The notes below the pieces were generated by a model that made no database searches, had not been told where the DNA came from, and worked only from the letters and a program-made list of their open reading frames with translations. 64,000 bases of DNA, taken from an uncultured Spirochaetia bacterium (GTDB lineage Bacteria > Oederibacteriota > PGYV01). The translations under genes and the position numbers were made by a program. Position 1 is the stretch's first letter. Each line of letters starts with the position of its first letter. Location of the stretch: the NCBI GenBank assembly GCA_964417645.1, contig CAYQIS010000002.1, positions 130,583 to 194,582 on the forward strand, given 5' to 3'. Shown here one piece after another: positions 14,153 through 44,299 of the stretch.

Positions 14153-15733
14153 ATGAAACTTTTAAGGGGAATTTTCTTTCAGCTTGCGGCCGGAGTATTT
14201 TTCTTTTGTTCGGTTTTTTCCGGCACAATAAATCTGCAGAAAACAATTGAACCCGAAGTCGGTTTTGTGGGCGACACCGTAACCGTATGTATTTCAATAG
14301 ACCCTCAGGGGGAAACGCCAAAAGCTGACATTGTGTGGGTGATTGACAGAAGCGGTTCAATGAGCACCGGCATAAACAACATAAAAAACAATATAAATTA
14401 TATGACAACACAGCTTGCATCAAAAGGAATTGATTACAGGCAGGGGCTTGTAACTTATGAAGGTTTGCCTGATGACTCTGCAAGTTTTACGCTTTATGGA
14501 TTTGCGTCTTCTGATTCGCAGTTTTCTTCCTGGCTTGCGGGTATAACCGTTGGCGGAGGATATGAACCCGGCCTTGAAGCATTATACAAGGCAAATTCAA
14601 TGGGCTGGCGTCCAGATGCTTCAAAAAGCCTGATTTTAATCACGGATGAGGCGCTTCCCTGCCTTGAGCAGAATTTTTACGCTGTTGACACGCACCTTTC
14701 AATGACTTACACGGCATCAGACCTTTCTTCGCAGGGCGTGGTAATTCACTCCATAAGCAAGGCATATCCGGTGCCGAATGTTTATATGCAGTGCAATCCC
14801 GCGGATCTTCCTCCGCTTGCCGGAGGATTATGGCTTGATTACAGCGCGCCTTCTTCAAGCTGGAATATTTTTCTGTCAACGCTTGGCAATGCAATCAGCA
14901 GCTATACAAATGTGGTAATAAGAGACCCGATGCCGCCGGAATTGATGCCGCTTGCCCCGTACGGAGGAGGTACATATTCCGGCGGAGAAGTTATATGGAC
15001 TTTCAGTTCTGTCGGAAAAGGAGTGCCTTTTCAAGTTTGTTTTCCGGCAGTGATTACAAGCTCTTTTACGGGAACAATCAGCAATACGGCTTATGTTTCC
15101 GCCGACGGTGTTACGGAAACGTCATCAAACCCGGAATATGTTTTTTACCCTACCAACACGGCAACTATAACGCAGACATCAACAAAAACAAGCACACCTA
15201 CCATCACACCCACTCATACAATAACCGAAACCCATACCATAACAAAAACTCATACAGTTTCTCCGACCATAACACAAACATGGACATTTACCCACACCCC
15301 CACAATAACCAAAACGGCAACACAGACAGTAACAGGAACAGCCACACAAACCGCAACACAGACAACCACTCCAAGCGTCACACAAACCATAACACCGACT
15401 TTCACAATAACCCCCACATTTACGCCGACCCCTCCGCCTTTAATTCTTGCGGATTACGGAGGATTTCCAAATCCGTTCAGGGATGACACAAGGATTGTTT
15501 TTTATGTTTCGGTTGAAGCGGATGTTACTGTTAAAATCTACACTGTTTCGGGAGAAGTGGTAAGGGAATCCGAACCCATGGACTGCCCGCGCGGCAGAAA
15601 CAGTTTTTACTGGGACGGGAAAAACAAGAGCAACAAAAAAGTGGCTTCCGGAGTTTTTATTTACAGGATAACCGCGGTGTCAAAAAAAGGAGAAAAGCAG
15701 TTTGCTTTTGGAAAGGTTTCATGCGTTCGATAA
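14153..15733 (+). CDS. secreted von Willebrand factor A domain protein with alternating-Thr linker and canonical T9SS-type C-terminal sorting domain
   Basis: Signal peptide, VWA MIDAS motif (VWVIDRSGSM), about 80 aa of TxT repeats, and a C-terminal Por_Secre_tail-like domain (FPNPF...VKIYTVSGEVV...FYWDG...GVFIYRI). Confidence 0.8.
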   Translation: MKLLRGIFFQLAAGVFFFCSVFSGTINLQKTIEPEVGFVGDTVTVCISIDPQGETPKADIVWVIDRSGSMSTGINNIKNNINYMTTQLASKGIDYRQGLVTYEGLPDDSASFTLYGFASSDSQFSSWLAGITVGGGYEPGLEALYKANSMGWRPDASKSLILITDEALPCLEQNFYAVDTHLSMTYTASDLSSQGVVIHSISKAYPVPNVYMQCNPADLPPLAGGLWLDYSAPSSSWNIFLSTLGNAISSYTNVVIRDPMPPELMPLAPYGGGTYSGGEVIWTFSSVGKGVPFQVCFPAVITSSFTGTISNTAYVSADGVTETSSNPEYVFYPTNTATITQTSTKTSTPTITPTHTITETHTITKTHTVSPTITQTWTFTHTPTITKTATQTVTGTATQTATQTTTPSVTQTITPTFTITPTFTPTPPPLILADYGGFPNPFRDDTRIVFYVSVEADVTVKIYTVSGEVVRESEPMDCPRGRNSFYWDGKNKSNKKVASGVFIYRITAVSKKGEKQFAFGKVSCVR

Positions 15734-17058: not shown

Positions 17059-17749
17059 ACCGGATTTTGTGACACACCTTGAAGAACTCCGTTCAAGAAT
17101 AATTTTTGTGCTTGTTTTTTTTGTTGTGGCTTTTATTTTAATGTTTTGTTTTTCGCCTGAAATTACTGCTTTGCTTCGTGAGGCCGCCGGAAATCCTTCT
17201 GTTACTCTTGCGTATTTTAAGCCGTACGAAAAATTTATGGCATACATGAAAATCGCTTTTTTTGGATCGGTTTTTGTAAGCGTGCCTGTGGCTGTTTTAC
17301 AGGCGGCTGCTTTTGTGTATCCGGCCCTTAAAGAAAAAGAGAAAAAAACATTTTATATTATAACCGTTGCCGCGCCGTTTATTTTTGTTTTGGGATGCGC
17401 ATTTGGTCTTTTTGTCATAACGCCGGCTGCATTTTCTTTTTTTACCATGTTTATGAAAGGGGACGGAGTGCAGCCTCTTTGGAGTATGGATTCTTTTTAC
17501 GGTCTTATAGCCGGAATATCCGTGATAACAGGGGCTGTTTTTGTGACGCCTCTTCCCGTGGCTTTTCTTGTTAAAACAGGTATAATAAGTAAAGGAATGA
17601 TATCGGCTTTAAGGCCGTATATTATAGTGGCTTGTTTTGTTTTGGCGGCTTTTATTACGCCCGGACCGGACCCCGTAACACAAGTTTTGACGGCGCTGCC
17701 TTTATATTTGCTGTTTGAGTTGTCAGCTCTGGCCGGGAAAATTATATAG
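17021..17749 (+). CDS. tatC: twin-arginine translocase subunit TatC
   Basis: 6-TM TatC with HLEELRSRI N-terminal motif. The first ATG overlaps tatA by 38 nt, so the true start may be a few codons downstream. Ends in TAG. Confidence 0.85.
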   Translation: MKKKRTKKAPKNEPDFVTHLEELRSRIIFVLVFFVVAFILMFCFSPEITALLREAAGNPSVTLAYFKPYEKFMAYMKIAFFGSVFVSVPVAVLQAAAFVYPALKEKEKKTFYIITVAAPFIFVLGCAFGLFVITPAAFSFFTMFMKGDGVQPLWSMDSFYGLIAGISVITGAVFVTPLPVAFLVKTGIISKGMISALRPYIIVACFVLAAFITPGPDPVTQVLTALPLYLLFELSALAGKII

Positions 17750-17758
17750 GAGGCGTAT

Positions 17759-18664
17759 ATGGACAGAAGAGAATTTATTTCAATGTCCGTAAAAATGGCG
17801 GCGATTGCGGGTGCGGCTTCCCTGGGTATTGATAAAAAAATTTTTGCTTCCGGCACATCATTTGATCTTGCCGCAGTAAAGAACGGAACTCCGGTAAAAA
17901 TGCTTGATTCGGCATTGAAGGCTTTGGGAGGAATGGATAAGTTTGTAAAAAAAGGCGGAACCGTTCTTGTGAAGCCAAATATAGGCTGGGATGTTGAACC
18001 GGAACTTGCGGCAAATACCAATCCTGAGCTTGTTGCGGGAGTGGTAAAACACTGTCTTGATGCCGGGGCTTCAAAAGTATATGTAATGGATCATACCTGC
18101 GACGGCTGGAAAAGCGCATACAGAACCAGCGGAATAGAAAAGGCGGCAAAGAATGCCGGCGCCGTTGTGGTAACAGGAAACAGCAGGGGAAATTATCAGG
18201 AAATTGATATTAAAGGGGCAAAAACGCTTAAACGGACAATGGTCCATGAACTTATGATATCCTGTGATTCTTTTATTAACGTTCCAATATTAAAAAGTCA
18301 CGGTTCAACAGGGCTTACAATTGGCATGAAAAATCTTATGGGCACGGTATGGGACAGAGGATGGTGGCACATGAGCGGTCTGCATCAGTGCATAGCGGAT
18401 TTTGCCGCCTACAGAAAACCGGATCTTACAATAGTGGACGCATTCAGGATAATGAAAAGAAACGGGCCGCGGGGGGTCTCAAAGGCTGATGTTGAGGAAA
18501 CCCGTTCTTTAATTGCCTCTGCGGATATGGTGGCTGCCGATGCGGCGGCTGCATCACTGTTTGGAGTAAATCCTGCAAGCATTGATTATATAAAAATTGC
18601 GGCTGACAAAGGTCTTGGAAACATTGACCTTGGCAAATTAAGAATAAGCAGGCAGGTAATGTAG
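17759..18664 (+). CDS. DUF362 domain protein with a twin-arginine (Tat) signal peptide
   Basis: N-terminal MDRREFISMSVKMAAIAGAASLG fits the S/T-R-R-x-F-L-K Tat consensus plus an h-region. The rest has a DUF362-like fold. Lies immediately downstream of tatAC. Confidence 0.7.
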   Translation: MDRREFISMSVKMAAIAGAASLGIDKKIFASGTSFDLAAVKNGTPVKMLDSALKALGGMDKFVKKGGTVLVKPNIGWDVEPELAANTNPELVAGVVKHCLDAGASKVYVMDHTCDGWKSAYRTSGIEKAAKNAGAVVVTGNSRGNYQEIDIKGAKTLKRTMVHELMISCDSFINVPILKSHGSTGLTIGMKNLMGTVWDRGWWHMSGLHQCIADFAAYRKPDLTIVDAFRIMKRNGPRGVSKADVEETRSLIASADMVAADAAAASLFGVNPASIDYIKIAADKGLGNIDLGKLRISRQVM

Positions 18665-18665
18665 T

Positions 18666-20087
18666 TTGTTAAAAAAAATAAGGATTGCGGTATCTTTCTC
18701 GGTATTTGCCCTGCTTGTTTTATTTTTTTTGCTGCCCCATACCGATATAAGACTTTCTTATATTGCAAAATTACAGCTTATACCCCTTATTATGTCGTTG
18801 ATATCGGGCGCGGGAATTATTTACGCAGTTTTTTTTCTTTTTTCAATCATCCCCGCGCTGATTGCGGGAAGGATATACTGCTCTTCCGTTTGTCCGCTTG
18901 GTTTTATTCAGGATATTTTTACGGCTTTAAGGAGAACAGCCTCAAACAGCCGATTTGTTTATAAAAAGAAGATAAAGTGGATTACGCCTTTGATTGCGGC
19001 AATAACTTTTGTATCGCTTGTATCCGGTGCTGGAATTTTTTTCTTTTTATTTGAGCCATATTCCATTGCGGCAAGAATTATTAACGCTTTTGTTTCCTTT
19101 GATACAAATGTATTATACACGGCGGTTTTGTATCTAATTGTAATTGCCTGCGTTTCGGTGATGAAAGGAAGATTGTTTTGCAACACTTTGTGTCCTGCCG
19201 GAAGCGTTCTTTCAATGGCCGCGCATTTTTCATTTTATAAAATTGATTTTGACAAAAAATCATGCATTGCCTGCGGCAGATGCGAATATGTATGCAAGGC
19301 GGAATGTATAAACGTTGTAAATAAAGAAGTTGATTTTGAAAGATGCATAGGGTGCATGAACTGTATTGATGTTTGTCCAAAAAATGCGATAAATTGGACT
19401 GCAAAAAAAAGCGCTGAAAAGAAAGGAAGAAGGGAATTTCTGGAAAAATCCGCGCTGGCTTTTGGAGCCGCCGCTGTTTTGCCTGTTTTAAAATCGGAAA
19501 ACGGGCATCCTGTGATGCCGCCCGGCGCTTTAAACATCAGCCGTTTTAATCGGCTTTGTACGGCTTGTCATACATGCGTAAAGGCATGTCCTCAGAAAGT
19601 TATAACAATAAGCCCGGCAGGGTATGGAATACTTAATCCTTTAAGGCCAATGCTTGATTATGAAGTTTCATACTGCCTTTATGCATGTAATGACTGCACA
19701 AAAAGCTGTCCTACGGGAGCGCTTAAGTTTCTTGATGTAAGAGAAAAGAAAAATACTTCCATCGGAAAAGCCGAACTGAACAAACAAATATGCATCGGAT
19801 ATAACGGCGGAATAACGTGCAATGTATGCGTTGAGCATTGCCCTGTTAAGGCCGTTTATGCCGTAAAATATAAAAAAAATCTTGCCCCGGAAATATTAAA
19901 AGACATATGTACGGGCTGCGGAGCATGTGAAAAAAGCTGTCCTGTAAGGCCTGTAAGGGCAATCAGGGTTAAGCCTTTGGATATTCATGAAAAAATACCT
20001 GATCCGGCCAAAGCCGTAAGACCGGGTGAATACAACCTTAAATTCAGTGAAAAAAAGGGAATTAACGGGGACCCCTTTCCTTTTTGA
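18666..20087 (+). CDS. membrane-bound polyferredoxin (NapH/MauN-like 4Fe-4S protein)
   Basis: 4-5 TM helices with a conserved CSSVCPLG segment, then at least five CxxCxxCxxxCP ferredoxin-type cluster motifs. Confidence 0.7.
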   Translation: MLKKIRIAVSFSVFALLVLFFLLPHTDIRLSYIAKLQLIPLIMSLISGAGIIYAVFFLFSIIPALIAGRIYCSSVCPLGFIQDIFTALRRTASNSRFVYKKKIKWITPLIAAITFVSLVSGAGIFFFLFEPYSIAARIINAFVSFDTNVLYTAVLYLIVIACVSVMKGRLFCNTLCPAGSVLSMAAHFSFYKIDFDKKSCIACGRCEYVCKAECINVVNKEVDFERCIGCMNCIDVCPKNAINWTAKKSAEKKGRREFLEKSALAFGAAAVLPVLKSENGHPVMPPGALNISRFNRLCTACHTCVKACPQKVITISPAGYGILNPLRPMLDYEVSYCLYACNDCTKSCPTGALKFLDVREKKNTSIGKAELNKQICIGYNGGITCNVCVEHCPVKAVYAVKYKKNLAPEILKDICTGCGACEKSCPVRPVRAIRVKPLDIHEKIPDPAKAVRPGEYNLKFSEKKGINGDPFPF

Positions 20088-20218
20088 AATTTCTTAATAT
20101 TAAATATTCTTAAAAAACTTTTCTTTTTAATGCTTTTGCTGATTTTATGAAATTTGATTTTGGAAGATATATTAAGCATAATTGAGGTGAAAGAATAAAA
20201 CGGAAAGAGGTGAGGACA

Positions 20219-20404
20219 ATGTTATTCTACAGGACGCAGGAGGAAATAAGGCGCCGCAGGGAAGAGCCCGAAACCCGTCATGATCATCTGAAAGATTTAA
20301 GGGAAAAAATAAGGGAAAGGGACGACAGACGCAGAATGCGCAGTTTTGACATTGAAAAAATAGACGAATTCTTTGATGACTGGCAGAAAATGAACCGCGC
20401 TTAA
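20219..20404 (+). CDS. hypothetical small, highly charged (Arg/Glu/Asp-rich) protein
   Basis: 61-aa ORF with RBS AAGAGGTGAGG 6 nt upstream of the ATG. No domain match. Confidence 0.35.
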   Translation: MLFYRTQEEIRRRREEPETRHDHLKDLREKIRERDDRRRMRSFDIEKIDEFFDDWQKMNRA

Positions 20405-20449
20405 AGATGTTGTGATATAATGACAGCATCTTTTAACCGCGGAGGCATT

Positions 20450-22285
20450 ATGTCCGGCAAAAAAATACTTGATTTAAATGCTCTTATGTACGCCAAGACG
20501 GCAAAAATATGGGAAAAGTTTGGAGCCATAAAAAGAGCGGGTGTTTTAATGCCCGTTTTTTCTGTTTATTCCGAAAAATCCTGCGGAATCGGTGAAATTT
20601 CTGATATAAATCTTATTGCGGATTTTTGTGTAAAATCAGGGCTTTCAATAATACAATTGCTTCCGATGAATGATACGGGTTTTGATTATGCCCCGTACTC
20701 TGCGCAGAGCACTTTTGCGCTTGATCCCATGTATTTAAGGCTTTATGAAATACAGGGTGTTGATATTTCCCTTTTTAAGAAGGAAATTGCAAAGATAAAG
20801 GAAAAGTTTCCCGCGGGAAAAAAAAGGGTTGATTATCGGATAAAAGAGGAAAAATTAAGGCTGCTTTATGAAATGTTCGTTAAGTTTGATTGTAATAACC
20901 CCGATTACATTAATTATAAGAAAATAAATTCCCCCTGGCTTAATGATTATGCGCTTTATAAAGCAATCAAAGAAATGAACTCTCAAAAAAGCTGGGAAGA
21001 ATGGCCTGAAGAGCTTAAGTTAAGAGAATTTGGAGCGCTTTCGGAATTTGAGGTTAAGAATATTGATACGGTGGAGTTTTATAAATTTCAGCAGTATCAG
21101 CTTTTTATTCAATTTTCCCGGGTTAAAAAAGAATGCAATAAAAAAGGCATATATATTCAGGGTGATCTTCCTTTTCTTGTATCGCGCGACAGCGCTGATG
21201 TATGGGCCAAACAGGGATATTTTAAGCTTAATATGGTTGCAGGGGCTCCTCCTGATATGTACTTTGCAAAAGGCCAGCGCTGGGGCATGCCGCCTTATAA
21301 TTGGGAAATAATTGAACATCACGGCTATGATTATATAAAAGAAAAGGTAAGGTATGCGGAGAATTTTTATGACATGTTCAGAATAGACCATTTTGTGGGT
21401 CTTTTCAGGCTTTGGACAATAAATGAGAACGAACCTCATTCAACATACGGATTAAACGGCAGATTTGACCCTGAAAACGAGGATGAATGGAAAAATCACG
21501 GAACCAAAATTATAGACACAATGCTTGAAGCTTCTTCAATGCTGCCTTGCGCGGAAGACCTTGGAGTTGTTCCGCAGTGCAGTTATGAAACCCTTGATGA
21601 ATACGGGATACCGGGTATGGATGTGCAGAGATGGACAAGGGATTGGGGAAAGACTTATGAATTTAAGAATCCGTCAGACTACAGGGTAAACGCCTCTTCA
21701 ATTATATCAAGTCATGATATGAGCCCTTTGATTTTATGGTGGGAACAGGAAGCAGGCACGGTTGACGCTTTGCTTGTTGAAAAACTTTGTGAAGAAAACG
21801 ACATTGATCACAAAAAAGTTTTAAAGGCGGTTTTTGAAGCGTCGAAACCCGAATCAAAAAGACTAAGATTCAAAAAGAATTTCAAAGAACCGGAAGAAGT
21901 TCTTGAAGCTCTTGAACTTACAAGGGCAGAGGGGTGGATGTTTTATGATTTGTTCAGGGAATCGGCTTTTGAAAAAGAACAGTTTCTTAAGTTTGCGGGC
22001 ATATTCAATAAACCGGAAAATGTGACCCATAAGGAATTGACAAGAGCCGCAATTAAGGCGTCTTTTGAAAGCAGCAGTGTTTTCTCTGTACAGCTTATTC
22101 AGGATTATCTTGGTTTGGGGAATTATTTTGAAGGATATAATATGGAAGAAACAAGAATAAATGTGCCGGGAACCGTATCGCCTTTAAACTGGTCTTTTGT
22201 GCTTCCCGTTTCCCTTGAAAAACTTGCGGAATCGGAAGTATGCGATGAAATAAAAAATCTTGCCGTGTCAGCCGGCAGAAATTAA
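20450..22285 (+). CDS. malQ: 4-alpha-glucanotransferase (amylomaltase, GH77)
   Basis: GH77 motifs (FRIDHFVGLFRLW, GDLPF, catalytic region). ATG at 20450 with GGAGG RBS; the track ORF starts 30 nt earlier. Confidence 0.85.
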   Translation: MSGKKILDLNALMYAKTAKIWEKFGAIKRAGVLMPVFSVYSEKSCGIGEISDINLIADFCVKSGLSIIQLLPMNDTGFDYAPYSAQSTFALDPMYLRLYEIQGVDISLFKKEIAKIKEKFPAGKKRVDYRIKEEKLRLLYEMFVKFDCNNPDYINYKKINSPWLNDYALYKAIKEMNSQKSWEEWPEELKLREFGALSEFEVKNIDTVEFYKFQQYQLFIQFSRVKKECNKKGIYIQGDLPFLVSRDSADVWAKQGYFKLNMVAGAPPDMYFAKGQRWGMPPYNWEIIEHHGYDYIKEKVRYAENFYDMFRIDHFVGLFRLWTINENEPHSTYGLNGRFDPENEDEWKNHGTKIIDTMLEASSMLPCAEDLGVVPQCSYETLDEYGIPGMDVQRWTRDWGKTYEFKNPSDYRVNASSIISSHDMSPLILWWEQEAGTVDALLVEKLCEENDIDHKKVLKAVFEASKPESKRLRFKKNFKEPEEVLEALELTRAEGWMFYDLFRESAFEKEQFLKFAGIFNKPENVTHKELTRAAIKASFESSSVFSVQLIQDYLGLGNYFEGYNMEETRINVPGTVSPLNWSFVLPVSLEKLAESEVCDEIKNLAVSAGRN

Positions 22286-22343
22286 TTGTGGCTGCCGTGC
22301 TGTTAACCGGCAAAAAACAGTATTAAGCATACAGGAGGATTAT

Positions 22344-22778
22344 ATGAAACATTCTTACCTTTTTGAGCAGAGACTTTGGAAAGCAAAGGGTTTTTACATT
22401 GATGAAAATGGCAAAAAGATAAGAACTGAAGGCATTACGGAAGTGCTTCATAAAGGAGGAAATTGGATAATTGAAGGAATAATGAGGCTTCCGATGAAGG
22501 CCAACAAGATGCTTGAATTAAGGGAAGTGTATAAAGTAAAAAAACTCGGCAAAAAAGCTGTTGAAACCGAATGGGTTTCGGATAATCCGGTAACCGGGAA
22601 ATTAAAGGGCAGGTTTCATTTTGCGGGAAATTTTATTGTGTCAACATATTCTTCGCAGGATAAAAAATATTCCGGATTTGAGACAATGGAACTTGTGGGT
22701 GAAAGCAGGTATATAAACAAGGGAAATCTTTTTCTTGACGGCAACAGGGTTTCTTCCTGGGAAGTGGTGCTTATCTGA
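22344..22778 (+). CDS. hypothetical protein (beta-rich, no recognisable domain)
   Basis: 144-aa ORF with strong RBS AGGAGG 6 nt upstream of ATG 22344. Confidence 0.5.
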   Translation: MKHSYLFEQRLWKAKGFYIDENGKKIRTEGITEVLHKGGNWIIEGIMRLPMKANKMLELREVYKVKKLGKKAVETEWVSDNPVTGKLKGRFHFAGNFIVSTYSSQDKKYSGFETMELVGESRYINKGNLFLDGNRVSSWEVVLI

Positions 22779-24151
22779 AGAAAGTTAATGCAAAGTCCGG
22801 AGATATTATAGAAGCTGATGTCGTTGGCCTTGCTTATGGGGGCGATGCTGTTGCTAAGTTTCACGGAAAAAATGTATATATACCATACGCGGTTCCGGGT
22901 TCAATTGTAAAAGCCGCCGTAAAAACCGTTAAAGAAAATTACATCAGGGCTGAAATTAAAGAAATAATTTCGCATTCAGATTTTGAAACAAAGCCTGTAT
23001 GCCCGCATTTTTATGAATGCGGCGGGTGTGATTATCTTAATATATCTTTTGATATGCAGAAAAAATATAAAAAAGAGCTTTTGGAAGGAATAATTAAAGA
23101 CGCCGGATTTTTCAGGGCAAAAGTGCACGATCTGATTTTTTATGAAAAACCATTTAATTACCGCAACAGGGCCGAGTATAAGGCTGTTCTGCATGAAGGG
23201 AAGATTGCTCTTGGATTTAACGCGGCAAAAAGCGTAAAAATAGTGCCGATAAGAAACTGCAGTCTTTTAAAACCTGGCATTAACGAAGCGGCTTCAATAA
23301 TAAGAAGATCACTTGTATCCTCCAAAATAAAAGTTTCGGCTTATGATGAGCGTTCGGGCAAAGGATATTTAAGGCATGTTGTGATTAAAACAAATGAAGC
23401 AGGGGAAGTTCTTTGCATATTTTGTGTAAATTCAAAGGAAATAAAGCCGTTTCTTTATGATGCGTCCGTGGCTTTGTCGGACAGGATAAAAAAGATGTCC
23501 GGTGTTGCCGTGAATTTTAACATGGAACAAGGGCAGGGTGTCTTCGGGCCAAGGACAGAAGTGATAAGCGGGAAGCCTTATATAATTGAAAAGGCGGCAG
23601 GATCTGAATTCAGGATAGGCCATCAGACATTTTTTCAGATAAATACGACAATGCTTGAACATATGATATCTTTTGTGGACAGGCATTTAAAACATGGATA
23701 TTCCGTGCTTGATTTGTACGGAGGCTTGGGCGCTTTGTCTTTCCCGCTTCGGCATAGGATGAGAAGTCTTACTGTTGTTGAGGAAAACAAAGAGGCTGTA
23801 GAATCTCTTGTTATGAACATTAAAAGGACAAAAACAAGAAATGTTACCGCGGTATGCGGTAAATCCGAAGAATACGGGGTTAAAATGTTAAGTGAAAGAA
23901 AGCATGATTTGCTTATTGTTGACCCGCCCCGCTCCGGGCTTCATCCAAAACTTTTAAACGCCATAAATAAAAACGGGCCCGGGTGTCTGGTGTATATATC
24001 GTGTAATCCTCAGACATTTGGAAGGGACATAGAAGAATTAAAGTCAAAATACCGGCTTTTGGAAGCTGTCCCGATGGACCAATTTGCGCAAACCTATCAC
24101 GTGGAAGTAATGGGGTATCTTGAAAGGCAAAAGCCTCAGGACAGATCTTAA
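22775..24151 (+). CDS. rumA: 23S rRNA (uracil-5)-methyltransferase RumA/RlmD family; start codon uncertain
   Basis: TRAM domain (..GDIIEADVVGLAYGGDAVAKFHGKNVYIPYAVPGSIV..), the Fe-S Cys cluster (CPHFYECGGCDY) and the SAM-MTase/catalytic Cys region (VYISCNP) are all present. The TRAM domain lies upstream of the first in-frame ATG (23054) and no canonical start codon precedes it. Confidence 0.7.
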   Translation: MKKVNAKSGDIIEADVVGLAYGGDAVAKFHGKNVYIPYAVPGSIVKAAVKTVKENYIRAEIKEIISHSDFETKPVCPHFYECGGCDYLNISFDMQKKYKKELLEGIIKDAGFFRAKVHDLIFYEKPFNYRNRAEYKAVLHEGKIALGFNAAKSVKIVPIRNCSLLKPGINEAASIIRRSLVSSKIKVSAYDERSGKGYLRHVVIKTNEAGEVLCIFCVNSKEIKPFLYDASVALSDRIKKMSGVAVNFNMEQGQGVFGPRTEVISGKPYIIEKAAGSEFRIGHQTFFQINTTMLEHMISFVDRHLKHGYSVLDLYGGLGALSFPLRHRMRSLTVVEENKEAVESLVMNIKRTKTRNVTAVCGKSEEYGVKMLSERKHDLLIVDPPRSGLHPKLLNAINKNGPGCLVYISCNPQTFGRDIEELKSKYRLLEAVPMDQFAQTYHVEVMGYLERQKPQDRS

Positions 24152-24188
24152 GATTAACGTTTTAAATCGGAACTTCAAGCCTTAATTA

Positions 24189-24217
24189 TTGTCTAAATTT
24201 AAACGTTATGATAAAAT
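24189..24217 (+). promoter_or_regulatory. sigma-70-like promoter of the GH8 gene with an AACGTT-centred imperfect palindrome in the spacer
   Basis: TTGTCT(24189-94)-17 nt-TAAAAT(24212-17). The spacer contains TTTAAACGTTAT. A second related site, ATTAACGTTTTAAAT, lies at 24153-24167. Confidence 0.5.
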
Positions 24218-24245
24218 ATGCATACTAAATAACGGAAGGTGTAAA

Positions 24246-27200
24246 GTGAGATTTAACGTAAAAGCGATTTTATTATCCGCAATAGCGTTTCTTTTTTCGC
24301 TCATTATATATGCGGATACCTGTAATATGCCGTTCCCCCAGGCGGAAACATATCCTTATGGGTTAAAGCCCAATAATTATACCCAGGCACAAATGAACGC
24401 CCATTGTCAGGCATGGTTTGACAAGTGGCGCGCTAAATATCTTACACAAACCAATTGCGCTCCCGGCGAATGGAGAGTTCAAAGGACAGAGACAGGAAAC
24501 TCCATTCACAAAGGGTGCCCTGAAAATGATACGGTAAGCGAAGGCATAGGATATGGCATGTTAATCTGCGCATATATGTCCTCGGTCACAAACAACACAA
24601 AGCAGTATTTTGACGGCTTATGGAATTATTATAAAAATCATCTTGACGGCAACGGCCTTATGAACTGGCAGATACCATACTGCGACAGCGGAGGGGCGGC
24701 AACAGATGCGGATCAGGACGTTGTGTAGGCGCTGATTGTGGCGGACAAGCAGTGGGGAAGCGCCGGCGCAATAAATTATCGCAACGAAGCAATAGCGCTT
24801 GCCGCAAAGGTGCTTCAGCATGAAGTTACGGCATCAAATGATATAAGGCCGGGTGACGGATGGGACGGAGGCAATCCTTCTTACTTTGCCCCTTACACTT
24901 ACAGGATGATAGGTGATTATACCGGAGTTACAAGATGGTACAGTGTGGCAAGCAGAACATATAACACAATTGTCAAATATTATTATACATCATCTTTAAC
25001 CTATGACAGCACACTTAAAATGTACACAGGAATGCAGCCAAACTGGTGCAATTATGACGGAAGCCCGTGGAGCCCAGGGGCGTGGTGCATGAGGGCCGAC
25101 ACATGGTGGTGGGACGCAATACGACATGCCTGGAGGCAGGGTTATGATTATGTTTTATACGGAAGATTAAACAGCGGATATGCCCAGGATAATTCGTTCA
25201 GAATATCAGAATATTTTAAGACAAAGTATAACGGCAATCCCGCTCTTATAAAATCACATTATGAGTTAAACGGAACGGAAACATATTATTGCAGGGGAGA
25301 CAGGACGCCGGATCTTTGCACGGAAGATGTAAAAAACCTGCCGGGTCCTGTTGGTGCGATTGCTGTTGCCGCTATGGCGGGAGAGGATCAGAATTGGCTT
25401 AACGCCCTGTATGACAGGCTTGTTAATATGGATGCAGGAAACGGGCCGGGTGAACTTACTGAAACCGGCGTTATGTGGGGAACGGATTATTTTTGTGACA
25501 TATTAAAAATGCAGTATCTTCTTATTTTAACCGGGAATATGCCAAATCCTCTGGGCAATTATCCCACACCCACGCCTACCAATACATGGAATCCTTTAAC
25601 GCCCACGCCGACACCCGTGCCTCCGGGATTGTTTGATGATTTTGAAACAGGCGCGCTGATGAATCCTGACACATCGGAATCAGGCGGAGGTTCAACCGCC
25701 ACAATAACAAATACAACCGCTGACAAATACGAAGGGGCAAGGTCAATGCGCGTTGACACAACAGGAACGGGCTGGGCTTTGCTTTCGATTGATTCGCCCT
25801 ATGACGGCGGAATCGGTTATAGGAATTTTACCGGCGCAACTGCGCTTACCTTCTATATTAAAGCGCCGGCAAACACCGGGTTTTTCATTCAGCTTACCGA
25901 GGCAATGTCAGGCGGAGGTGACGGCGAAAGGTTCAGCAACAGGAGCACAGGGTTTACGGCAAACGGTTCGTGGCAGTTAATATCCATAAATCTTTCTTCG
26001 CTTACGCGTGACCAGTACACGCCGGCTTACGGCGACAATATTCTTGATATACAGGCGATAAAGTCTTTTGTTGTACAGTTTGACAATCCCGGCACAAAAA
26101 CAATATATATAGACAGAATAATGTTTACCGGAAATTTCCCCACAAGCACGCCTACTTACACAAATACAAACACAAGAACCCCTGCGCTTACTTACACTTT
26201 CACTTCAACGGCAACGTTTACAAGAACCCCCACACAGACAGACACGGTAAACCCGCTTTGGACTCACACTTATACTTTTACAAGCACCAATACGGCAACA
26301 AACACAAACACATATACGGCAACACATACTGCAACGGCAACGCCTTCCGTGATATCTCCGCCGTCGGCCGGAGTTTTTGATGACGCCGAAACAGGCGCGC
26401 TTAAAAATCTTACAATAAACGGAACCGCTGTTTCCGCCGTTGTAAATTCATCCGCGGCCGCACATGCCGGAACAAGGTCCATAAGGGTTACAACAATAAC
26501 AAGCGGCGCATGGGGGGGCTTTACGATTGAATCTCCGTATGTTGCCGGAAGTTACGGTGATTATACCGGCGCAACAGCTTTGAATTTCTGGATTAACGCT
26601 CCCGCGAATTCGGGCAATTTTTTCATAAAAGTTATTGAATATAATGCCGGAGGAAGCGGCGAAGAATATTCAAATCGCGGCGCACAGATAACGCCCACAG
26701 GAACGTGGCAGAACGTAAATATTTTACTTTCTTCTCTTACGAAAGATCAGTACTCGCCCGCGGGAGACGGAAGCAACACGCTGAATTTAAACAAAATACA
26801 ATACGTAATGTTTCAGTGGGATTCTTCAACCGCGGCAACGATATACATTGACGACATAAAATTCGCCGGAATGGCCACATTTACGCCCACAGGCACTTCA
26901 ACCTCAACATACACATATACAAGAACACAAACCGCAACTTCCACTTATTCGGCCACTGCAACATACACATTTACGGCCACCCATACAAATACCGCAACCG
27001 CAACTTATACATCAACAGTTGTTCCTTCAAATACAAGCAGTAATACGGCAAACTATACTGCGACAGGCACCAATACCACCACTCCTTTGCCTTCAAACAC
27101 AAACACAGCAACGCATACTGCAACGGCAACAGGCACGCCTGCATATACAAGTACATACACTTATACGGCAAGCGTAACAAATACCAATACGGCAACATAC

Positions 27201-28028
27201 ACGCCAAGCAATACTGTTACAGGCACCCAGCCCGCAACAAGCACTTTTACGTCCACACATACCGCAAGCTCAACTTATACCCATACAAGGACTTTTACCG
27301 AAACCCAAACTTACACCAATACATTTACTCCTGTATTCACGGATACCGTTACATTGACATTCACATCAACCAACACAGCAAGTTTTACATATACTCCAAG
27401 CAATACGGTTACGCCCGGCGGCCCGACTTTTACCCATACAAACACATTTACGAACACAAACACATTTACGCCAACTTTTACCGCCAGCAGCACATATACC
27501 GCGGCTTTTACCAACACTCCGTCTTATACAAGCACGCCTGTTCCGCCTACACTTACAAATACCGCAACATCCACACATACAAACACCTTTACCAATACAT
27601 TTACCCGGACTTACACTCAAACAGCTGTATTTACGGCAACCAATTCATTTACCCAAATGCCCACTCAGACATATACCAATACACCTGTGGTACAGCAAAG
27701 CAATGAGCAAAAGGCGGAAGTAAAACTGATATATCCGATGCCTTATGATCCGCTAAAAGGCAAACCTCTGTACATTCAATACATGGCAGGCAAAAGCCAT
27801 TCAGGCGTGCGTTTTATGGTTTATTCCTCAAGTTTCAGGCTTATCAGGGAAGTTATATTTGAAAGCAACCTTCCCCCAGGGTTAAATACACTTTCTGTTC
27901 TCCCTCAAAATTTTGAGGGGCTTGCAAACGGCACATATTATTATTTGTTAACTGTTGAAAATGACAATAACGAAAAATCACGGGCAAAAGTTGACAAACT
28001 TATAATTCTTAAAAGTAAAAAAGATTGA
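24246..28028 (+). CDS. secreted GH8 family glycoside hydrolase with two CBM-like modules, alternating-Thr linker and C-terminal sorting domain; interrupted by one in-frame TAG (24726-24728)
   Basis: GTG 24246 with RBS GGAAGGTG, then a signal peptide. GH8 motifs span the TAG (..GAATDADQDVV*ALIVADKQWG..). ORFs 24189-24728 and 24738-28028 are in the same frame. Two FDD(F/A)E...IYIDxIxF modules, a linker of about 270 aa, and a variant C-terminal domain (LIYPMPYD...FMVYSSSFRLIREV...GTYYYLL). Confidence 0.75.
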
Positions 28029-28053
28029 TGAGCGCTCATATTTAAAATAATGC

Positions 28054-28082
28054 TTGCGTTAAAACGTTTTAAATGATATAAA
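28054..28082 (+). promoter_or_regulatory. sigma-70-like promoter of the lacI-GH30 operon with a perfect 14-bp palindrome TTAAAACGTTTTAA (28059-28072) and a second palindrome TAAACGTTTA (28089-28098)
   Basis: TTGCGT-17 nt-TATAAA. The palindrome spans the -35 3' end and the spacer. The AAAACGTTTT core matches the LacI/PurR-family operator archetype. Confidence 0.55.
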
Positions 28083-28115
28083 TTTAGGTAAACGTTTAAC
28101 TAAAAACGGGTGAAT

Positions 28116-29057
28116 ATGAAAAGAGCAACAATAAAAGATATAGCAAAAGCAGCCGGTGTTTCTTTTGTGACGGTATCAAAGGTTTTAAATAATACCGGGT
28201 CAATATCAAAAAAAACATCGGATAAAATAAGAAGACTGGCCAGGGAAATGAATTACATCCCTGATAATGCGGCGCGGGCGCTTGCAAAAGGAAGGCCTGA
28301 TTCAATTGCGATTGTCACGCCAAGTTTTACAACCGGCTTTATGCAGCAGCTTTTTATGGGCATTCAGGAAGAGATGCTGGGGTCTGACAAGGATGTTAAT
28401 TTTCATATTTCCGGAATGTCCGGCGAAGACATAGAAAAATCGCTGAATGTTATCAAGCACGGCAAAAAAGCGGGATCCATAATTGTTATTTCACAGCAGC
28501 CTGATGCGGCGCAGATTGACGGCTTGGTAAAAGCGGGAATACGCGTTGTGCTTGTTGAAGGCAAGCATCCAAAAGCCGTGATGATAAGCGCTGACAATGA
28601 AAACGGGGCAATACTTGCGGCAAGGCGTATGGTTGAAACAGGGGTAAAAAAACCGGGCCTTATTATAGGCGATGTAAAAATGATAAATTCACAGAAAGAA
28701 AGACTTGCGGGATTTAAAAAAATATTTGGAAATAAATTCAGCATTTATGAATTAAGGGAGCATTCATTTAATGACGGAATTAAAGCTTTCAGATATCTTT
28801 CGAATGAAGGTGTTGACTCTGTGTTCTGCGCGGCGGGAGACCTTGTTGCGTACGGTTTCTTATTTGAAGCCGGCAGATATAACAGCAGGATAAAGATAAT
28901 AGGTTTTGATGATGATCAGCTATCCGAAGGTATGGGGCTTACAACGGTAAAACAGGATGTCAAAGGAATGGGAGCGGCGGCATTTAGGGCGGCTGCAAAC
29001 GGTCCTGACTTCGGTGTAATAAATTTTAAAACAGAATTGATTGTAAGGAGGACATAA
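28116..29057 (+). CDS. LacI family transcriptional regulator
   Basis: N-terminal HTH MKRATIKDIAKAAGVSFVTVSKVLNN plus a periplasmic-binding-protein-type ligand domain. The stop directly abuts the ATG of the GH30 gene. Confidence 0.85.
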   Translation: MKRATIKDIAKAAGVSFVTVSKVLNNTGSISKKTSDKIRRLAREMNYIPDNAARALAKGRPDSIAIVTPSFTTGFMQQLFMGIQEEMLGSDKDVNFHISGMSGEDIEKSLNVIKHGKKAGSIIVISQQPDAAQIDGLVKAGIRVVLVEGKHPKAVMISADNENGAILAARRMVETGVKKPGLIIGDVKMINSQKERLAGFKKIFGNKFSIYELREHSFNDGIKAFRYLSNEGVDSVFCAAGDLVAYGFLFEAGRYNSRIKIIGFDDDQLSEGMGLTTVKQDVKGMGAAAFRAAANGPDFGVINFKTELIVRRT

Positions 29058-32021
29058 ATGATTAAAAAGATAACCGGATTTATTGTTCTTTTTGCCGCGT
29101 TTTTTTCCGCGGTATATGCCGCTGACTGCAATATATACGGGTTAACGGACAAGCAGTATATAAGGGGCTTTGGCGCCTCATCCGCATGGAGCGACTGGGG
29201 AGGAAATTCGGCGGGAAATACATGGCTTGTGTCACATGCCGATGAGTTTTTCACAACAACAAGCGGCATAGGGCTTACAATAATAAGGGCGAGGATAAAT
29301 CCCGTCCAAAGCGAATGGGGAAATACGGCTCCGCCTTTGCAGGCCGCACGTGACAGGGGCGCAACGGAAATATTTGCAACTGCCTGGACTCCTCCCGCGC
29401 AGTGGAAAAGCAATAATGCGGTTGACAACCAAAACGGAGGATACCTTCTGCCGCAGTATTATCAAAATTATGCAAATTATCTGAGGGATTATGTAATATA
29501 TATGAGGGATCAAAAACAGGTTAATATAACGGCAATATCACCCGCAAATGAACCTGATTACCGTGTAAGCTATGACGGATGCGACTGGACAGGCGAACAG
29601 CTGCGTGATTTTGTAAAAGGATATCTGGGGCCTACTTTTCAGGCCGCGGGGCTGACAACAAAAATAATTATAGGAGAATCTTTTGCGAATAATTGCGCTT
29701 ATGTAAACCCCACGGTGCTTGATTCCGTTGCAAGAGGTTTTCTTTTTGCCGGGGCCACGCATTTTTACGGGGGAGGACCTTATGACTGCCCAAATCTTGG
29801 TACTTACGGCAAGGAATTCTGGCAGACTGAAAAATCCAATTTCACAGCTTATGACGGCAGCATTACCCACGGCCTTATAACCGCCGAGTGGATTCACAGC
29901 GGGTTTGTGACCGGAAATTACAATGTTTTCCTTTATTGGTGGCTTGCTTCGGATCAGACAAACGAGGGTTTGACTTCGGTTACCCTTGGCACTCCAAAAA
30001 GATATTATACATTCGGAAACTTCAGTAAATTTGTAAGGCCCGGCTATTACAGAATAGACGCAACAGCGGCGCCCACAACAAATGTTTTGGTTACAGCCTA
30101 CAGGTCGGGGGACAGATCAAAATATGTGATTGTTGCAATAAACAAAAATACATCCGCGACTTCGCAAAAGTTTGTGTTAAACAACATTCCTGACGGAACA
30201 TACAATGTTTATGTCACATCTTCAACACAAAATCTTGCACAGGTTTCCAATATCAACGTAACGGGAGGCAGTTTTACATACAGCCTGCCCGCTCAAAGCG
30301 TTGTGTCTTTTGTGTCGCTTGGCGGGCCGACGCCAACGCCGACTTTCACGGTTACAGGAACGCCGCCTACCAATACTCCCACATCAACGGCAACCCCGCT
30401 TCCGGCGTCAATTTTATTTGATGATTTTGAGGATTTAAATTATAAAAATAACTTTAACGGCGACAATTACAAATATAACGGCAACAATTCAAATAATTTT
30501 GCAATGCAGTTTCTGCAGCCGGGCGCCGCATCAACCGGCAATTATATAAGGATTACGGGAACAGTTGCGGATTACGGCGGTTTTGGAATGAACTTTGCGG
30601 CTTCAGGAGCTGCTGATTTGTCCGCTTATCAGGGGATTGAATTCTATATTAAAGGAAGCGGAACATACTGGCTTCAGTTCACCCAGGATTCAATAACGGA
30701 TTATGACTATCATGGAATTGTTGTTACCGCCACATCAACTTGGACAAAAGTGACAGTTTTATTCAGCCAGCTTGCGCAGAAGAACGGCACAAATCCTGTT
30801 GCATTTACAAAAAACGCGCTTAATGCGGTGCAGTGGGCAAGCAACGGCAACGGCGCTTTTGACCTTCAGCTTGACGAAATAAGGCTTTTATACAACAGCA
30901 GCATAACGCCAACTTATACGAATACAATCCCTCCTCCGACAAACACCGCAACAAGGACGTTTACCAACACTTATACGGCAACATACACAAATACGCCGAC
31001 ATTTACCAATACGCCCGTACCCCCAACTTCAACAAATACAAGCACATATACGGCAACAGCAACAAACACCGCAACAAGGACATTTACCAATACCGCAACA
31101 AACACGCCGGTGCCTCCGACATCAACAAACACAAATACTTCCGTGCCTGCAACATCAACACACACCAACACTCAGGTTCCGCCGACTTTAACAAACACAA
31201 GTACAAACACATCGACGGCAACTTATACATACACGATAACTTATACGCCAAGCGAGACGGTTACAACAGGCGGACCCACGCTTACATTTACACAGACTTA
31301 TACAAATACGTATACGGCGACTCATACTGCCACAAACACTTATACAGATATCCCCACAAGCACGCCGACCAATGCGCCGCCGACATCAACTCACACCTCA
31401 ACAGCAACCGCAATTATTCCAACTTCAACAAACACAACCGTGTCTACAAGCACGTATACGCCTGTTAATACGGCAACATTTACACATACAAGCACGAACA
31501 CTTATACAAACACGCCCGTACCGCCGACTGCAACAAACACAGCGTCAAATACAAGCACGCGCACATACACTCAGACACCGACAAACACAATGACACGCAC
31601 GCCCACATATACATTTACCCAAACGTACACATACACGCACACGGAAACAATTGTTCCTTCGTTTACCAATACGCATACATTTACAGCAACAATAACGCCT
31701 ACTCCCACGCCGTCTGATGCAAAAGAGCAGGAGATAAAAGACATACTGCTGTATCCGCATCCGTATGATGCGGCAAAAGACAATTTAAAAATTATGTATA
31801 CAATAACAAAGAGGGCGCAGTCTGTTAAACTTTTGATATATTCATCGGCTTTCCGCCTGATACGCGAGGTTGAAATAGGCAGGGCGCTGTATGCAGGCAC
31901 GCATATCGGGGAGGTAAAGGCTTCACAGATAAGGCAGCTTGCAAACGGAACATATTATTTTGTGGTTAAGGATAATGAAGGCAAAAGGTCAAAAGCCGAT
32001 AAATTGATTGTCTTAAAATAA
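29058..32021 (+). CDS. secreted GH30 (subfamily 8-like glucuronoxylanase) with CBM-like module, alternating-Thr linker and C-terminal sorting domain
   Basis: Signal peptide. XynC-like motifs ([16 protein letters not shown] acid/base, FWQTE nucleophile). PT-linker, an FDDFEDL...LQLDEIRL module, about 265 aa of TxT repeats, and a C-terminal domain (ILLYPHPYD...[14 protein letters not shown]...GTYYFVV...KLIVLK). Confidence 0.75.
31240..32021 (+). repeat. 3' linker plus C-terminal-domain cassette, copy 1 (shared by five CAZyme genes)
   Basis: Roughly 650 bp are nearly identical at nucleotide level to 35770-36441. The cassette begins near the conserved island [16 protein letters not shown]. Confidence 0.8.
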
Positions 32022-32046
32022 CTTTTAACGTTTTAAATTCATTAAA

Positions 32047-32094
32047 GGCCCTTTATATGGTAAAATCAATTAATCCATATAAGGGGCTTTTTTT
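32047..32094 (+). terminator. intrinsic terminator-like hairpin (13-bp stem, 14-nt loop, T7 tract) ending 1 nt before the PL11 start codon; the stem includes the putative SD AAGGGG
   Basis: GGCCCTTTATATGG...CCATATAAGGGGC followed by TTTTTTT then ATG 32095. Confidence 0.6.
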
Positions 32095-35000
32095 ATGAAA
32101 AAGATCCTTTTTTTGTGTTTGACGATGCACCTTGCCTTTACGCTGCATGCGGCAAGGTACATGGAAAAGCTGGACAGGGGAGTTGTTGCTGTGCGCACGG
32201 GCACAAACAATGTGTATGTCGGATGGCGCATGTTTGCAACAGACCCTCAGGATGTTTCATTTAATGTTTACAGAAGCGGAGTAAAGGCAAACGCAACTCC
32301 GATAACCAATTCAACCAATTTTAACGACGTAACGACGGTTAACGGTACATATACCGTAAGGCCGATAATCGGAGGGATTGAACAGGCGGATTCTGAAACA
32401 GCCACGGTGTGGCCGCAGTTTTACATGACAATCCCTATGACCCCGCCTGATATGCTTACAATGCCTGACGGCGTCACCTGCACTTACAGCGCAAATGACT
32501 GTTCTGCGGCTGATTTGGACGGCGACGGCAAGTATGAAATAATAGTGAAATGGGATCCGTCCAATTCAAAGGACAATTCACAAGCCGGTTATACAGGCAA
32601 TGTATATCTTGACGCTTACAAGTTAAACGGCACCAGGCTTTGGAGAATAGACCTTGGAATTAATATCCGCGCCGGCGCCCACTATACGCAGTTTATGGTT
32701 TATGATTTAAACTCTGACGGCAAAGCGGAACTTGCATGCAAGACCGCGCCCGGTACAAAAGATTCATCAGGCGCGTATTTAAGCAGCGGGCCGGCTGCGT
32801 CTGACAATGACCAGGCTGATTACAGGAATTCAAGCGGATATATACTGTCAGGACCGGAATACCTGACTGTTTTTAACGGAGAAACAGGCCGCGAGATTAC
32901 AACAATAAATTATAATCCTCCGCGCGGTACAGTTTCTTCCTGGGGCGACAATTACGGAAACCGCGTTGACAGGTTTCTTGCGTGCATTGCCTATCTTGAC
33001 GGGGTTCATCCCAGTTTGGTCATGTGCCGCGGTTATTATACACGGGCGGTTTTGGTTGCATATGATTTTAACGGGACTGCGTTAAGCCAGCGCTGGATAT
33101 TTGATTCCAATTCGCCCGGTAACAGCGCTTATGCGGGCCAGGGAAACCATAATTTAAGCGTGGGGGATGTTGATAATGACGGCAGGGATGAAATAATATA
33201 CGGAAGCTGCGCAATTGATGACAACGGAACAGGTTTATATTCAACAGGCCTTGGCCACGGAGACGCCAACCATCTTGGCAACATGGACCCTGACAGGCCG
33301 GGACTTGAATACTTTCAGCCGCACGAGGAATATCCGCTTTCCGCCGGCGCTGAATACAGAGACCCTGCAACAGGAGCGCTTTTATGGGGATATCCTTCAA
33401 CTGCTGATGTGGGGCGCGGGCTTGCGGCCGACATAGACGGAAATTACAGGGGCTGGGAAATGTGGGCGTCTAATACGGACGGTATTTATAATGTAAAAGG
33501 AACAAGAATTTCAACTACAAAGCCTTCAATTAATTTCAGGATTTACTGGGACGGGGATCTATTGGATGAACTTCTTGACGGAACCAAACTTGACAAATGG
33601 AACGGAAACGGAACGACAAGACTTGTGACGATTTATAATTATGCGGGCGCAACGGAAAACAACGGCACAAAGGCAAATCCCGGATTAACCGCTGACTTGC
33701 TGGGCGACTGGCGTGAAGAAATGGTTTACAGAAATTCAACAAGCACCAATCTGATCATTTTTACCACAACAACACTTACAAATTACAGGTTCTATACATT
33801 TATGCATGACTTTCAATACCGTGTTTCCGTGGCCTGGCAGAATGTGGCTTATAATCAGCCCCCTCATGTGTCTTTTTATCTGGCCGACGGACCTTCCGCC
33901 CAGCCCGCGGGAAACATTATTTATCCTGCTTTAGGTGCAACCGCAACCCACACAGCCACACGCACCAATACCGCAACAAATACTCCCTCATTTACGTTTA
34001 CCGCAACAAGGACATTTACACACACACAAACACCCACTGCGACCGTAATTGCATCGGTAAATACGGATTTAATTGCAGGCTTTGCCACGCAAAACGGCGG
34101 CACAACAGGCGGTGCCGGCGGCCCGGAAGTGACAGTTACAAATCTTACTGACTTCATAACTTATGTGACAGATGATAATCCAAGGATAATAAAAGTTAAC
34201 GGTGAACTAAACAGCGGAGATGACAAGGGCAAGTCAGTGCGCGTGGGCTCCAATAAAAGCATAATTGGATGCGGTGCGGGCGCGTTTTTTAACGGTGTGG
34301 GTTTAATGATAAGCAATGACAGCAATATAATAATAAGAAACTGCAAATTTACACTGACTTCAATTACAAATACCACAGACCCCGCGGTATATGACCCGGA
34401 CGGGGATGAAGGCAGGCCGCAGATAATAGTAAACGGCGGGGACTGTATCAGCATTCAGAATACCAGCACAAATATATGGATAGATCATTGTGAGTTCTAT
34501 CAGGTTGACCCTGCCGTACAGACAAACCAGGATTTATATGACGGCCTTATTGACATAAAAAACAATTCAGATTACATAACCATATCATGGTGCTGTTTCC
34601 ATGACCATCATAAATGCCATTTAGTCGGAAGTTCAGATACTGATAACTATGACAGAAAGACCACCTTTCACCATAACTACTACAACAATATAAAAGAAAG
34701 AATGCCCAGCTACCGTTTTGGTACAGGGCATGTGTTTAATAATTATTATAACAGGGTATTAAGTTCTGCGGTAAATACAAGAATGGAAGCCGTGCTGCGT
34801 GTTGAGAACAATTATTTTGAAAATTCAATTGACTGCATAGTGGCAAAAAACAGCTTATTAAACGGTTTTTGGGATTTAAGAAGCGGCATAACAGGGCTTG
34901 ATAATTCAAATTTATATGTCTCCTGTTCGGGCAGCCAGCCGACCGTGTCAAACGGCACTTTTAACCCTTCTTATTCATATGCCGCAGTGCTTGAAGCGGC

Positions 35001-36441: not shown

Positions 36442-36522
36442 AAAATATTCAAGAAATCCGAATGCTATTCGTAACAAAACAGATTTTTTAATGTCTAAAG
36501 AATGTAAGTTATCGGAGGACAA

Positions 36523-39678: not shown

Positions 39679-39707
39679 TTTAAAAAGATGCCTGATATAT
39701 CTGACAG

Positions 39708-39736
39708 TTGACAATATAAAATTTTCTGTGTATATT
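39708..39736 (+). promoter_or_regulatory. sigma-70-like promoter of the GH5 gene
   Basis: TTGACA-17 nt-TATATT about 40 nt upstream of ATG 39776 (RBS GGAGA). Confidence 0.55.
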
Positions 39737-39775
39737 TATGCAAACGATTGTTTAAAATATTACATGGAGAATTTT

Positions 39776-44210: not shown

Positions 44211-44299
44211 AAATTTTCAAACACAACCTTACAAAATACTTCCAATTGACATTATTAAAAATTAATTTTATAATTGTTAAAGGATATAAGGAGGCTGTG

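Follow-up and report, generated by a model that had tools for sequence, protein, structure and literature searches.

Nonsense polymorphisms and very young pseudogenes are a common type of event in bacterial populations (Belinky et al. 2021, PMC7918605). The lead worked example of that study is an alternation between TAG and CAG, and carbohydrate metabolism is its second most populated category. The locus described here resembles these cases closely: a single in-frame stop lies in an otherwise intact, conserved carbohydrate-metabolism gene, it is found in one genome but not in near-identical ones, and TAG alternates with CAG. No substantive difference from these cases was found, with the reservation that the allele described here is a singleton for which a base error is possible. 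The amber variant belongs to an ordinary class of event.

An amber codon may also be decoded as glutamine. E. coli supE is a glutamine-inserting amber suppressor tRNA with the anticodon CUA, and we know of no free-living bacterium in which UAG has been reassigned to glutamine. For phages infecting standard-code hosts, such a reassignment is documented (PMC10879173). The cellulose paper on 'Candidatus Goldbacteria' (PMC7031533) makes no mention of GH8, stop codons or pseudogenes.

In this study we analyzed a stretch of DNA of 64,000 nucleotides, referred to as the window. This DNA is chromosomal and carries the housekeeping genes enolase, iPGM, TatC and Pth. As a taxonomic probe, enolase gave no more than 71% identity, to species of many phyla, and so did not point to one lineage. 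The GH77 protein of the window shares 60% identity with 'Candidatus Goldbacteria' MAG proteins, a weak hint at most. It contains a GH8 gene interrupted by an in-frame TAG. The GH8 gene belongs to a large gene cluster for secreted enzymes that degrade polysaccharides.

Organization of the interrupted GH8 gene

The ORFs at 24189-24728 and 24738-28028 lie in a single frame and are parted by one TAG alone, in the context GAC GTT GTG TAG GCG CTG ATT GTG (forward strand). The original prediction had described this codon as the only separator of the two ORFs, and both the sequence and its translation bear this out. The most likely start of the gene is the GTG at 24246, which has a GGAAGG ribosome-binding motif upstream. 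Downstream of the TAG, no further stop or frameshift was found in 1099 codons until the TGA at 28026-28028. Thus, the CBMs, the linker and the C-terminal domain are intact after the TAG, as had also been proposed.

The Pfam GH8 profile (PF01270) scored 89.1 bits against a cut-off of 24. Its match extends over residues 28-310, crossing the TAG, and confirms the earlier placement of the stop inside the catalytic domain. Identity to the homologue P0001 was 68.8% on the 5' side of the stop and 68.7% on the 3' side. Together, a profile match that runs across the TAG and equal identity on both sides argue that the interrupted frame is not a chance open frame, and on these comparisons this possibility is excluded. 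The features of the gene and the contigs of the same organism are collected in Table 1.

Table 1. Features of the GH8 gene in window coordinates, and same-organism contigs compared with the window. For contigs, the position is the part of the window covered.
Feature	Position	Strand	Description and basis
GH8 multi-domain secreted glucanase gene	24246..28028	+	1260 codons, one TAG at codon 161 (translation, Pfam)
Sec-type signal peptide (aa 1-23), MRFNVKAILLSAIAFLFSLIIYA	24246..24314	+	Read from sequence; homologues have equivalent N-termini
GH8 (alpha/alpha)6 catalytic domain	24315..25562	+	phmmer alignment to 1CEM and 1KWF, E = 1e-45
In-frame amber codon	24726..24728	+	T at 24726 is C in L094 and L097 (CAG, Gln161)
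CBM11-like module 1 (aa 456-640)	25611..26165	+	Pfam CBM_11, 29.3 bits, cut-off 27
CBM11-like module 2 (aa 704-875)	26355..26870	+	Pfam CBM_11, 36.4 bits, cut-off 27
Run of seven G in CBM module 2	26512..26518	+	Six G in L094
Thr-rich linker and C-terminal domain of ~110 aa	26871..28025	+	blastp between window proteins, Pfam
Contig L097 (SRR12997673)	22597..30190		7593/7594 bases matched; C at 24726
Contig L094 (SRR12997672)	17942..30506		99.92% over 12,565 bases; C at 24726
Contig L099 (SRR8581213)	27124..30514		100%, 3391/3391; outside 24726
Contig L100 (SRR12976788)	27346..30025		100%, 2680/2680; outside 24726
Contig L095 (SRR12997672)			6069/6069 bases identical; second TAG present
Contig L096 (SRR8581213)			1/4002 bases differ; second TAG present

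The closest described enzyme is the C. thermocellum endoglucanase CelA, a GH8 enzyme with which the predicted protein shares the catalytic fold and the aligned catalytic residues. Glu99, Asp154 (in the ATDAD motif) and Asp290 align with CelA Glu95, Asp152 and Asp278 (1CEM, 1KWF), and all three occupy invariant columns of the first homologue alignment. By analogy with CelA, Glu99 is taken to be the catalytic acid and Asp290 the catalytic base. The 1KWF chain displays a Gln in the VSEG motif, matching the E95Q change. Both the profile match and the catalytic residues indicate that the protein is a member of GH8. A further feature of the family, an unbroken frame for the whole barrel, is absent in the window owing to the TAG at codon 161, and present in the L097 allele.

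The two proteins differ outside the catalytic core. In place of the CelA dockerin, the window protein carries two CBM11-like modules that share 46% identity, together with a long Thr-rich linker and a C-terminal domain. The window protein also has extra loops compared with CelA, for example NSIHKGCPEN and the TYYCRGDRTPDLCTED insertion. The TAG position is aligned with CelA Leu159, and the stop site therefore corresponds to Leu in CelA versus Gln in the window lineage. The C-terminal tail of the GH8 protein is common to five other secreted proteins of the window (blastp). At a relaxed Pfam threshold, the C-terminal domain resembled the CHU_C type IX secretion signal only faintly, with a score below the cut-off.

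The intact allele in near-identical assemblies

Logan contigs of the same organism were reached by searches with neighbouring proteins, including GH77, and came from four sequencing runs. Only two other assemblies cover position 24726, L097 and L094, and both have C. Indeed, the base at 24726 is the sole mismatch between L097 and the window, with C in L097 and T in the window. Gene calling on L097 gives an unbroken GH8 protein of 1260 aa with Gln161, reading ...DQDVVQALIVADK.... The amber codon is a single-base C-to-T singleton (CAG, Gln161, to TAG) that is private to the window assembly, the T allele being found in neither of the two other assemblies covering the site. The intact 1260-aa secreted GH8-CBM11-CBM11 enzyme is the normal allele of the organism.

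A look-up of the exact 160-aa N-terminal fragment returned no record anywhere, and the exact product look-up of the GH30 neighbour also returned none. Exact DNA-pattern scans around the TAG, in which the codon was wild-carded, gave no match in genome or metagenome contigs.

The six-G run of L094 frameshifts the GH8 gene, which is split into 778 and 482 aa. Three states of the gene are found among the near-identical assemblies: intact (L097), amber (the window) and frameshifted in the G run (L094). Strain variation in these samples is also supported by a cluster of 8 SNPs that separates the window from L094 (21418-21559), and by one SNP at 46020 between the window and L096. As expected for a recent nonsense variant, the window gene differs by a single base from the intact allele of a near-identical genome and shows no other lesion.

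The ancestral codon and the age of the stop

The first search gave no protein more than 67% identical, and closer orthologues were obtained by scanning metagenome contigs. At residues 160-161, L084 (syntenic upstream, 85% amino acid identity) reads GTG CAG, and L091-L093 (syntenic, 76% identity over 1272 aligned residues) read GTA CAG. The same residues are encoded by GCG CAG in L082 (78-82% identity) and by GCG GCC in L083 (76-77% identity), which has Ala at 161. The frames of all these orthologues are open through the stop site. The presence of CAG in both the near-identical assemblies and the close orthologues indicates that CAG (Gln) is the ancestral codon of the lineage, from which TAG is one C-to-T transition away.

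The original prediction had expected TAT, TAC or TGG as the ancestral codon. This was not the case, CAG being found in L097, L094, L084, L082 and L091-L093. It had also named reads with one of these three codons as evidence against it; a sense codon was seen in other assemblies, but as CAG. In the wider family (n=120), the column at the TAG contains F 60, M 25, L 19, V 8, Y 4, I 3 and H 1. The earlier statement that an aromatic residue or Ala is usual at the site holds for its first part, since the 120 homologues have aromatic or hydrophobic residues, but Ala is absent there and occurs only in L083.

A multi-nucleotide event was also suspected, Val160 being odd compared with Ala in 118/120 homologues. 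This idea was dropped because the Val-Gln pair is shared by L084 and L091-L093. Judged from these orthologues, Val160 is a trait of the lineage and not part of the lesion.

Compared with L084, dN was 0.087 on the 5' side of the stop and 0.104 on the 3' side, with synonymous sites saturated. Dating of the stop by dN/dS was dropped because synonymous sites were saturated against every orthologue. The comparison indicates that both halves of the gene have long been under purifying selection, over essentially the whole divergence. Since an identical intact allele exists and both halves are equally constrained, the stop has essentially no evolutionary age.

Origin of the T at position 24726

We infer that the T most likely reflects true variation and not a base error, with the consequences for the protein given below. 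In the explanation that we favor, and consider reasonably probable, it is a real, very recent strain-level nonsense variant present in the consensus. In this view, the T allele is a very recent loss-of-function change present in a single strain or sub-population and picked up in the consensus by the assembler. The original prediction had proposed a recent nonsense mutation or an assembly or strain polymorphism, and the C found in L097 and L094 supports these jointly.

In cells carrying the T allele, translation would stop after residue 160 and yield a secreted fragment of 137 residues, in which Glu99 would be kept while ~60% of the barrel and Asp290 would be missing. Because the catalytic base and this part of the barrel would be lost, the fragment is predicted to be inactive. 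At most, trace amounts of full-length wild-type protein might be made through occasional misreading of UAG by the normal Gln tRNA.

Alternatively, the consensus base may be wrong as the result of a sequencing, assembly or polishing error, the organism itself having CAG. We regard this as unlikely, although it is the most serious of the alternatives. The T stands alone: C is present in both other assemblies that cover the site, L097 is otherwise 100% identical to the window, and the truncated product is without record in any other assembly. C-to-T is moreover a typical damage-type error, and cytosine deamination damage or low local coverage are possible causes. However, the window is identical to Logan contigs elsewhere (6069, 3391 and 2680 bases in L095, L099 and L100), and this perfect agreement indicates that the window assembly is not error-prone. 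Judged by Pfam, ~45 other genes of the window are intact, except for the one with the reproducible second TAG described below. Finally, real strain SNPs do occur in these samples.

A second in-frame TAG

The window contains another in-frame TAG, at 46841-46843, which splits a beta-helix glycosidase-like gene (46208-49432). It joins the same-frame ORFs 46208-46843 (211 aa, with a signal peptide) and 46886-49432 (848 aa). Homologues span the junction at 46841 as one protein, P0121 covering 99% of the fused query, and many homologues of the fused product carry PF12708 (pectate-lyase-3 / GH28-related beta-helix family). The column at this TAG is Gln in 18/28 homologues, within the motif GDWIVLQQYFW, and the two closest homologues have CAG at the codon. 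Unlike the GH8 stop, the second TAG recurs in every other same-organism assembly covering it, namely L095, L096 and a third contig with the same neighbouring genes.

Both internal TAGs (24726 and 46841) are located exactly at CAG/Gln positions of their relatives. This could mean that a deep-branching bacterium tolerates UAG at Gln codons, through a Gln-inserting amber suppressor tRNA or unusual misreading, which we consider very improbable. If true, such tolerance would explain both the TAGs at Gln sites and the recurrence of the 46841 TAG. In secreted glycosidases with low expression, replacement of CAG by TAG would then be almost neutral or would serve to dim expression. Its probability is kept small but nonzero only because the two TAGs coincide at CAG/Gln sites.

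The weight of this coincidence was estimated with simple mutation models based on window codon usage. In these models, two nonsense events would both be CAG-to-TAG with a probability of 0.2-5%, a range that depends on the transition and GC-to-AT bias and derives from a post hoc test on two events. When only C-to-T and G-to-A changes are considered, our own estimate from codon counts, also post hoc, is ~13%. The window contains 326 CAG vs 100 CAA codons. C-to-T bias and the predominance of CAG explain most of the two-TAG coincidence.

Use of TAG in the window and amber readthrough

Stop usage was counted at 48 ORF ends of the window, giving TAA 25, TGA 14 and TAG 9 (the two internal TAGs included). 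At least six of the seven true TAG terminators are located at natural family C-termini. In the NtrC-type regulator, the HTH_8 domain ends at residue 444/447. The family matches end at 227/242 in TatC, 265/301 in the DUF362 protein, 503/516 in iPGM and 325/343 in MsrAB, and the tail of the RGL11 lyase can be aligned with the GH8 tail as far as its end. The window uses the standard genetic code. A change of genetic code was rejected because other genes end normally at TAG. No back-up stops were seen near the TAG-terminated genes of the window.

Among the TAGs at ORF ends on the + strand, 3/7 are open in frame into the next ORF, one of them being the second internal TAG. The other two lead from the NtrC-type regulator to a VWA protein and from TatC to the DUF362 protein; the families are unrelated and both open junctions were treated as chance. 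A ribosome-binding motif and an ATG are present at the TatC/DUF362 junction.

These data bear on whether the amber codon is subject to tolerated or programmed readthrough, by a Gln-inserting suppressor tRNA (CUA) or by high near-cognate readthrough. Full-length enzyme would in that case be made despite TAG at Gln positions, and a CAG-to-TAG change would be nearly neutral or regulatory. The Gln positions of both TAGs and the low chance calculated above favor this, as does the occurrence of the second TAG in all three other same-organism contigs covering it, from at least two sequencing runs. Nevertheless, we consider it very improbable. Even assemblies that are 99.9-100% identical lack the TAG at 24726, as do the orthologues. 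TAG also ends at least six window genes normally, and since two TAG-ended genes are open into the next gene, efficient suppression would give harmful fusions at both.

No tRNA gene was detected by ARAGORN in the 64-kb window, and no Pyl genes were present among its ORFs. No stable RNA structure follows the TAG: the fold of 24700-24840 had z = -0.21, and 75/200 shuffles were at least as stable. Thus conservation, rarity of TAG and a stimulatory structure, the signs of programmed recoding that were looked for in the window, all failed to appear. Programmed readthrough had been put forward in the original prediction; it is contradicted by the CAG of near-identical assemblies and orthologues, by normal TAG termination, and by the lack of a structure or restart signal. 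As in code 15 phages and E. coli supE, both internal TAGs of the window are at Gln (CAG) positions. Unlike in these systems, TAG terminates in the window, the stop is not conserved, a suppressor tRNA was not seen in the window, and the DNA is chromosomal.

The least probable alternative, which we consider close to negligible, is that the gene is a pseudogene that has long been decaying, or that it works as a split gene with a separate, re-initiated downstream part, given the intact allele in the otherwise identical L097 genome, the absence of further lesions and the equal conservation on either side of the stop. Downstream frameshifts had been suggested as the mark of an old pseudogene; there are none up to the TGA, and an old pseudogene is rejected. 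For the split gene, the GTG at 24738, three codons past the TAG, is a formal restart candidate. However, over the next ~930 bases the best Shine-Dalgarno match at 15 in-frame restart codons is 4/6 to AGGAGG, whereas GGAGG-type motifs precede most true starts checked in the window. A restarted product would moreover be devoid of the signal peptide and of the catalytic Glu99.

Consequences for annotation

The amber codon reflects neither recoding nor an old pseudogene, and is a real but ordinary finding. In annotation, it would be wrong to discard the GH8 gene as a pseudogene of the species or to propose it as a recoding case. Wider interest rests only on the small residual chance of Gln amber suppression. 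If real, the three states of the GH8 gene would suggest, speculatively, a population in which a secreted "public-good" enzyme has loss-of-function variants in circulation.

Table. Coordinates of the features considered here.
Feature	Position	Strand	Remarks
Genuine TAG terminator, NtrC-type regulator	14105-14107		Next gene in same frame, no stop between
Genuine TAG terminator, TatC	17747-17749		Next gene in same frame, no stop between
VWA protein	14153-15733		FlgD_ig above cut-off; weaker CHU_C-like matches below threshold
Mismatch cluster, window vs contig L094	21418-21559		Within GH77 gene (20420-22285)
Run of seven G	26512-26518		CBM11 module 2 of GH8 gene
LacI-family sugar-binding-domain ORF	44246-45169		N-terminal HTH absent
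LacI-family sugar-binding-domain ORF	49495-50340		N-terminal HTH absent
Second internal TAG	46841-46843	+	Inside gene 46208-49432

In-frame TAG codons elsewhere in the window

A second internal TAG divides the gene of a secreted beta-helix protein into ORFs of 211 and 848 aa. Homologues of this protein, which are PF12708/GH28-related, span the junction; 18 of 28 have Gln at the site of the TAG, and both closest homologues have CAG. The TAG itself was also found in Logan contigs of SRR12997672 and SRR8581213, as well as in a third contig. In this it differs from the GH8 stop (24726-24728).

Two genuine TAG terminators, those of the NtrC-type regulator and TatC, are also followed by an open frame. 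Because the next gene lies in frame in both cases, amber readthrough would join unrelated proteins. We judged these open frames to be due to chance.

Alternative states of the GH8 gene

The window was compared with L094, a near-identical Logan contig (SRR12997672) from the same organism. Eight of the nine mismatches were packed into 142 bases of the GH77 gene, a pattern that suggests a strain variant or a recombined segment. Over the remaining ~12.4 kb, the only differences were at position 24726 and in the G run. This run has six G in L094 (8571 region), producing a frameshift that breaks the GH8 gene into 778 and 482 aa, and seven in L097, the corresponding contig of SRR12997673. Thus, three states of the gene are seen across near-identical assemblies: intact, interrupted by the amber codon, or frameshifted. 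Either slippage variation or a homopolymer error may account for the G-run difference.

In a related organism, with a GH77 75% identical to that of the window, gene calling gives the GH8 orthologue as two parts of 685 and 597 aa on one contig (L091, 4203-8050) but as an intact protein of 1277 aa on another (L092, 4198-8031). This is a further split or frameshift state of the GH8 gene family in metagenome assemblies.

P0001, the closest database homologue of the GH8 protein, has a C-terminal tail that is basic and poor in Thr (…STIRALRRLSARRQTPLLLHIPAQTRLFIPPL; C-terminus at 11900-12049 of its contig, L001). As this tail sits where the Thr-rich linker is expected to start, it suggests a frameshift or an assembly fault in the repetitive linker of L001.

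Secreted-enzyme cluster and lineage

Large secreted polysaccharide-degrading enzymes are clustered at 24246-42688 and 46208-49432, with LacI regulators in between. The members are GH8, GH30-like, RGL11+PL1 and GH44 proteins, a 986-aa protein without Pfam match and the beta-helix protein. Common to the six are a Thr-rich linker and a ~100-aa C-terminal domain; in the GH8 protein, this domain matched the CHU_C type IX secretion signal only faintly.

When the window's two intact LacI HTHs were used as tblastn queries, they matched only themselves, and no HTH-like sequence was detected upstream of the two LacI-type ORFs. These may be truncated regulators or HTH-less binding proteins.

The window organism belongs to a deep lineage. 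No GTDB species representative has an enolase with more than 71% identity to its own, and its GH77 shares 60% identity with proteins from 'Candidatus Goldbacteria' MAGs. The organism itself was found at 99.9-100% identity in the Logan assemblies SRR12997672, SRR12997673, SRR8581213 and SRR12976788.
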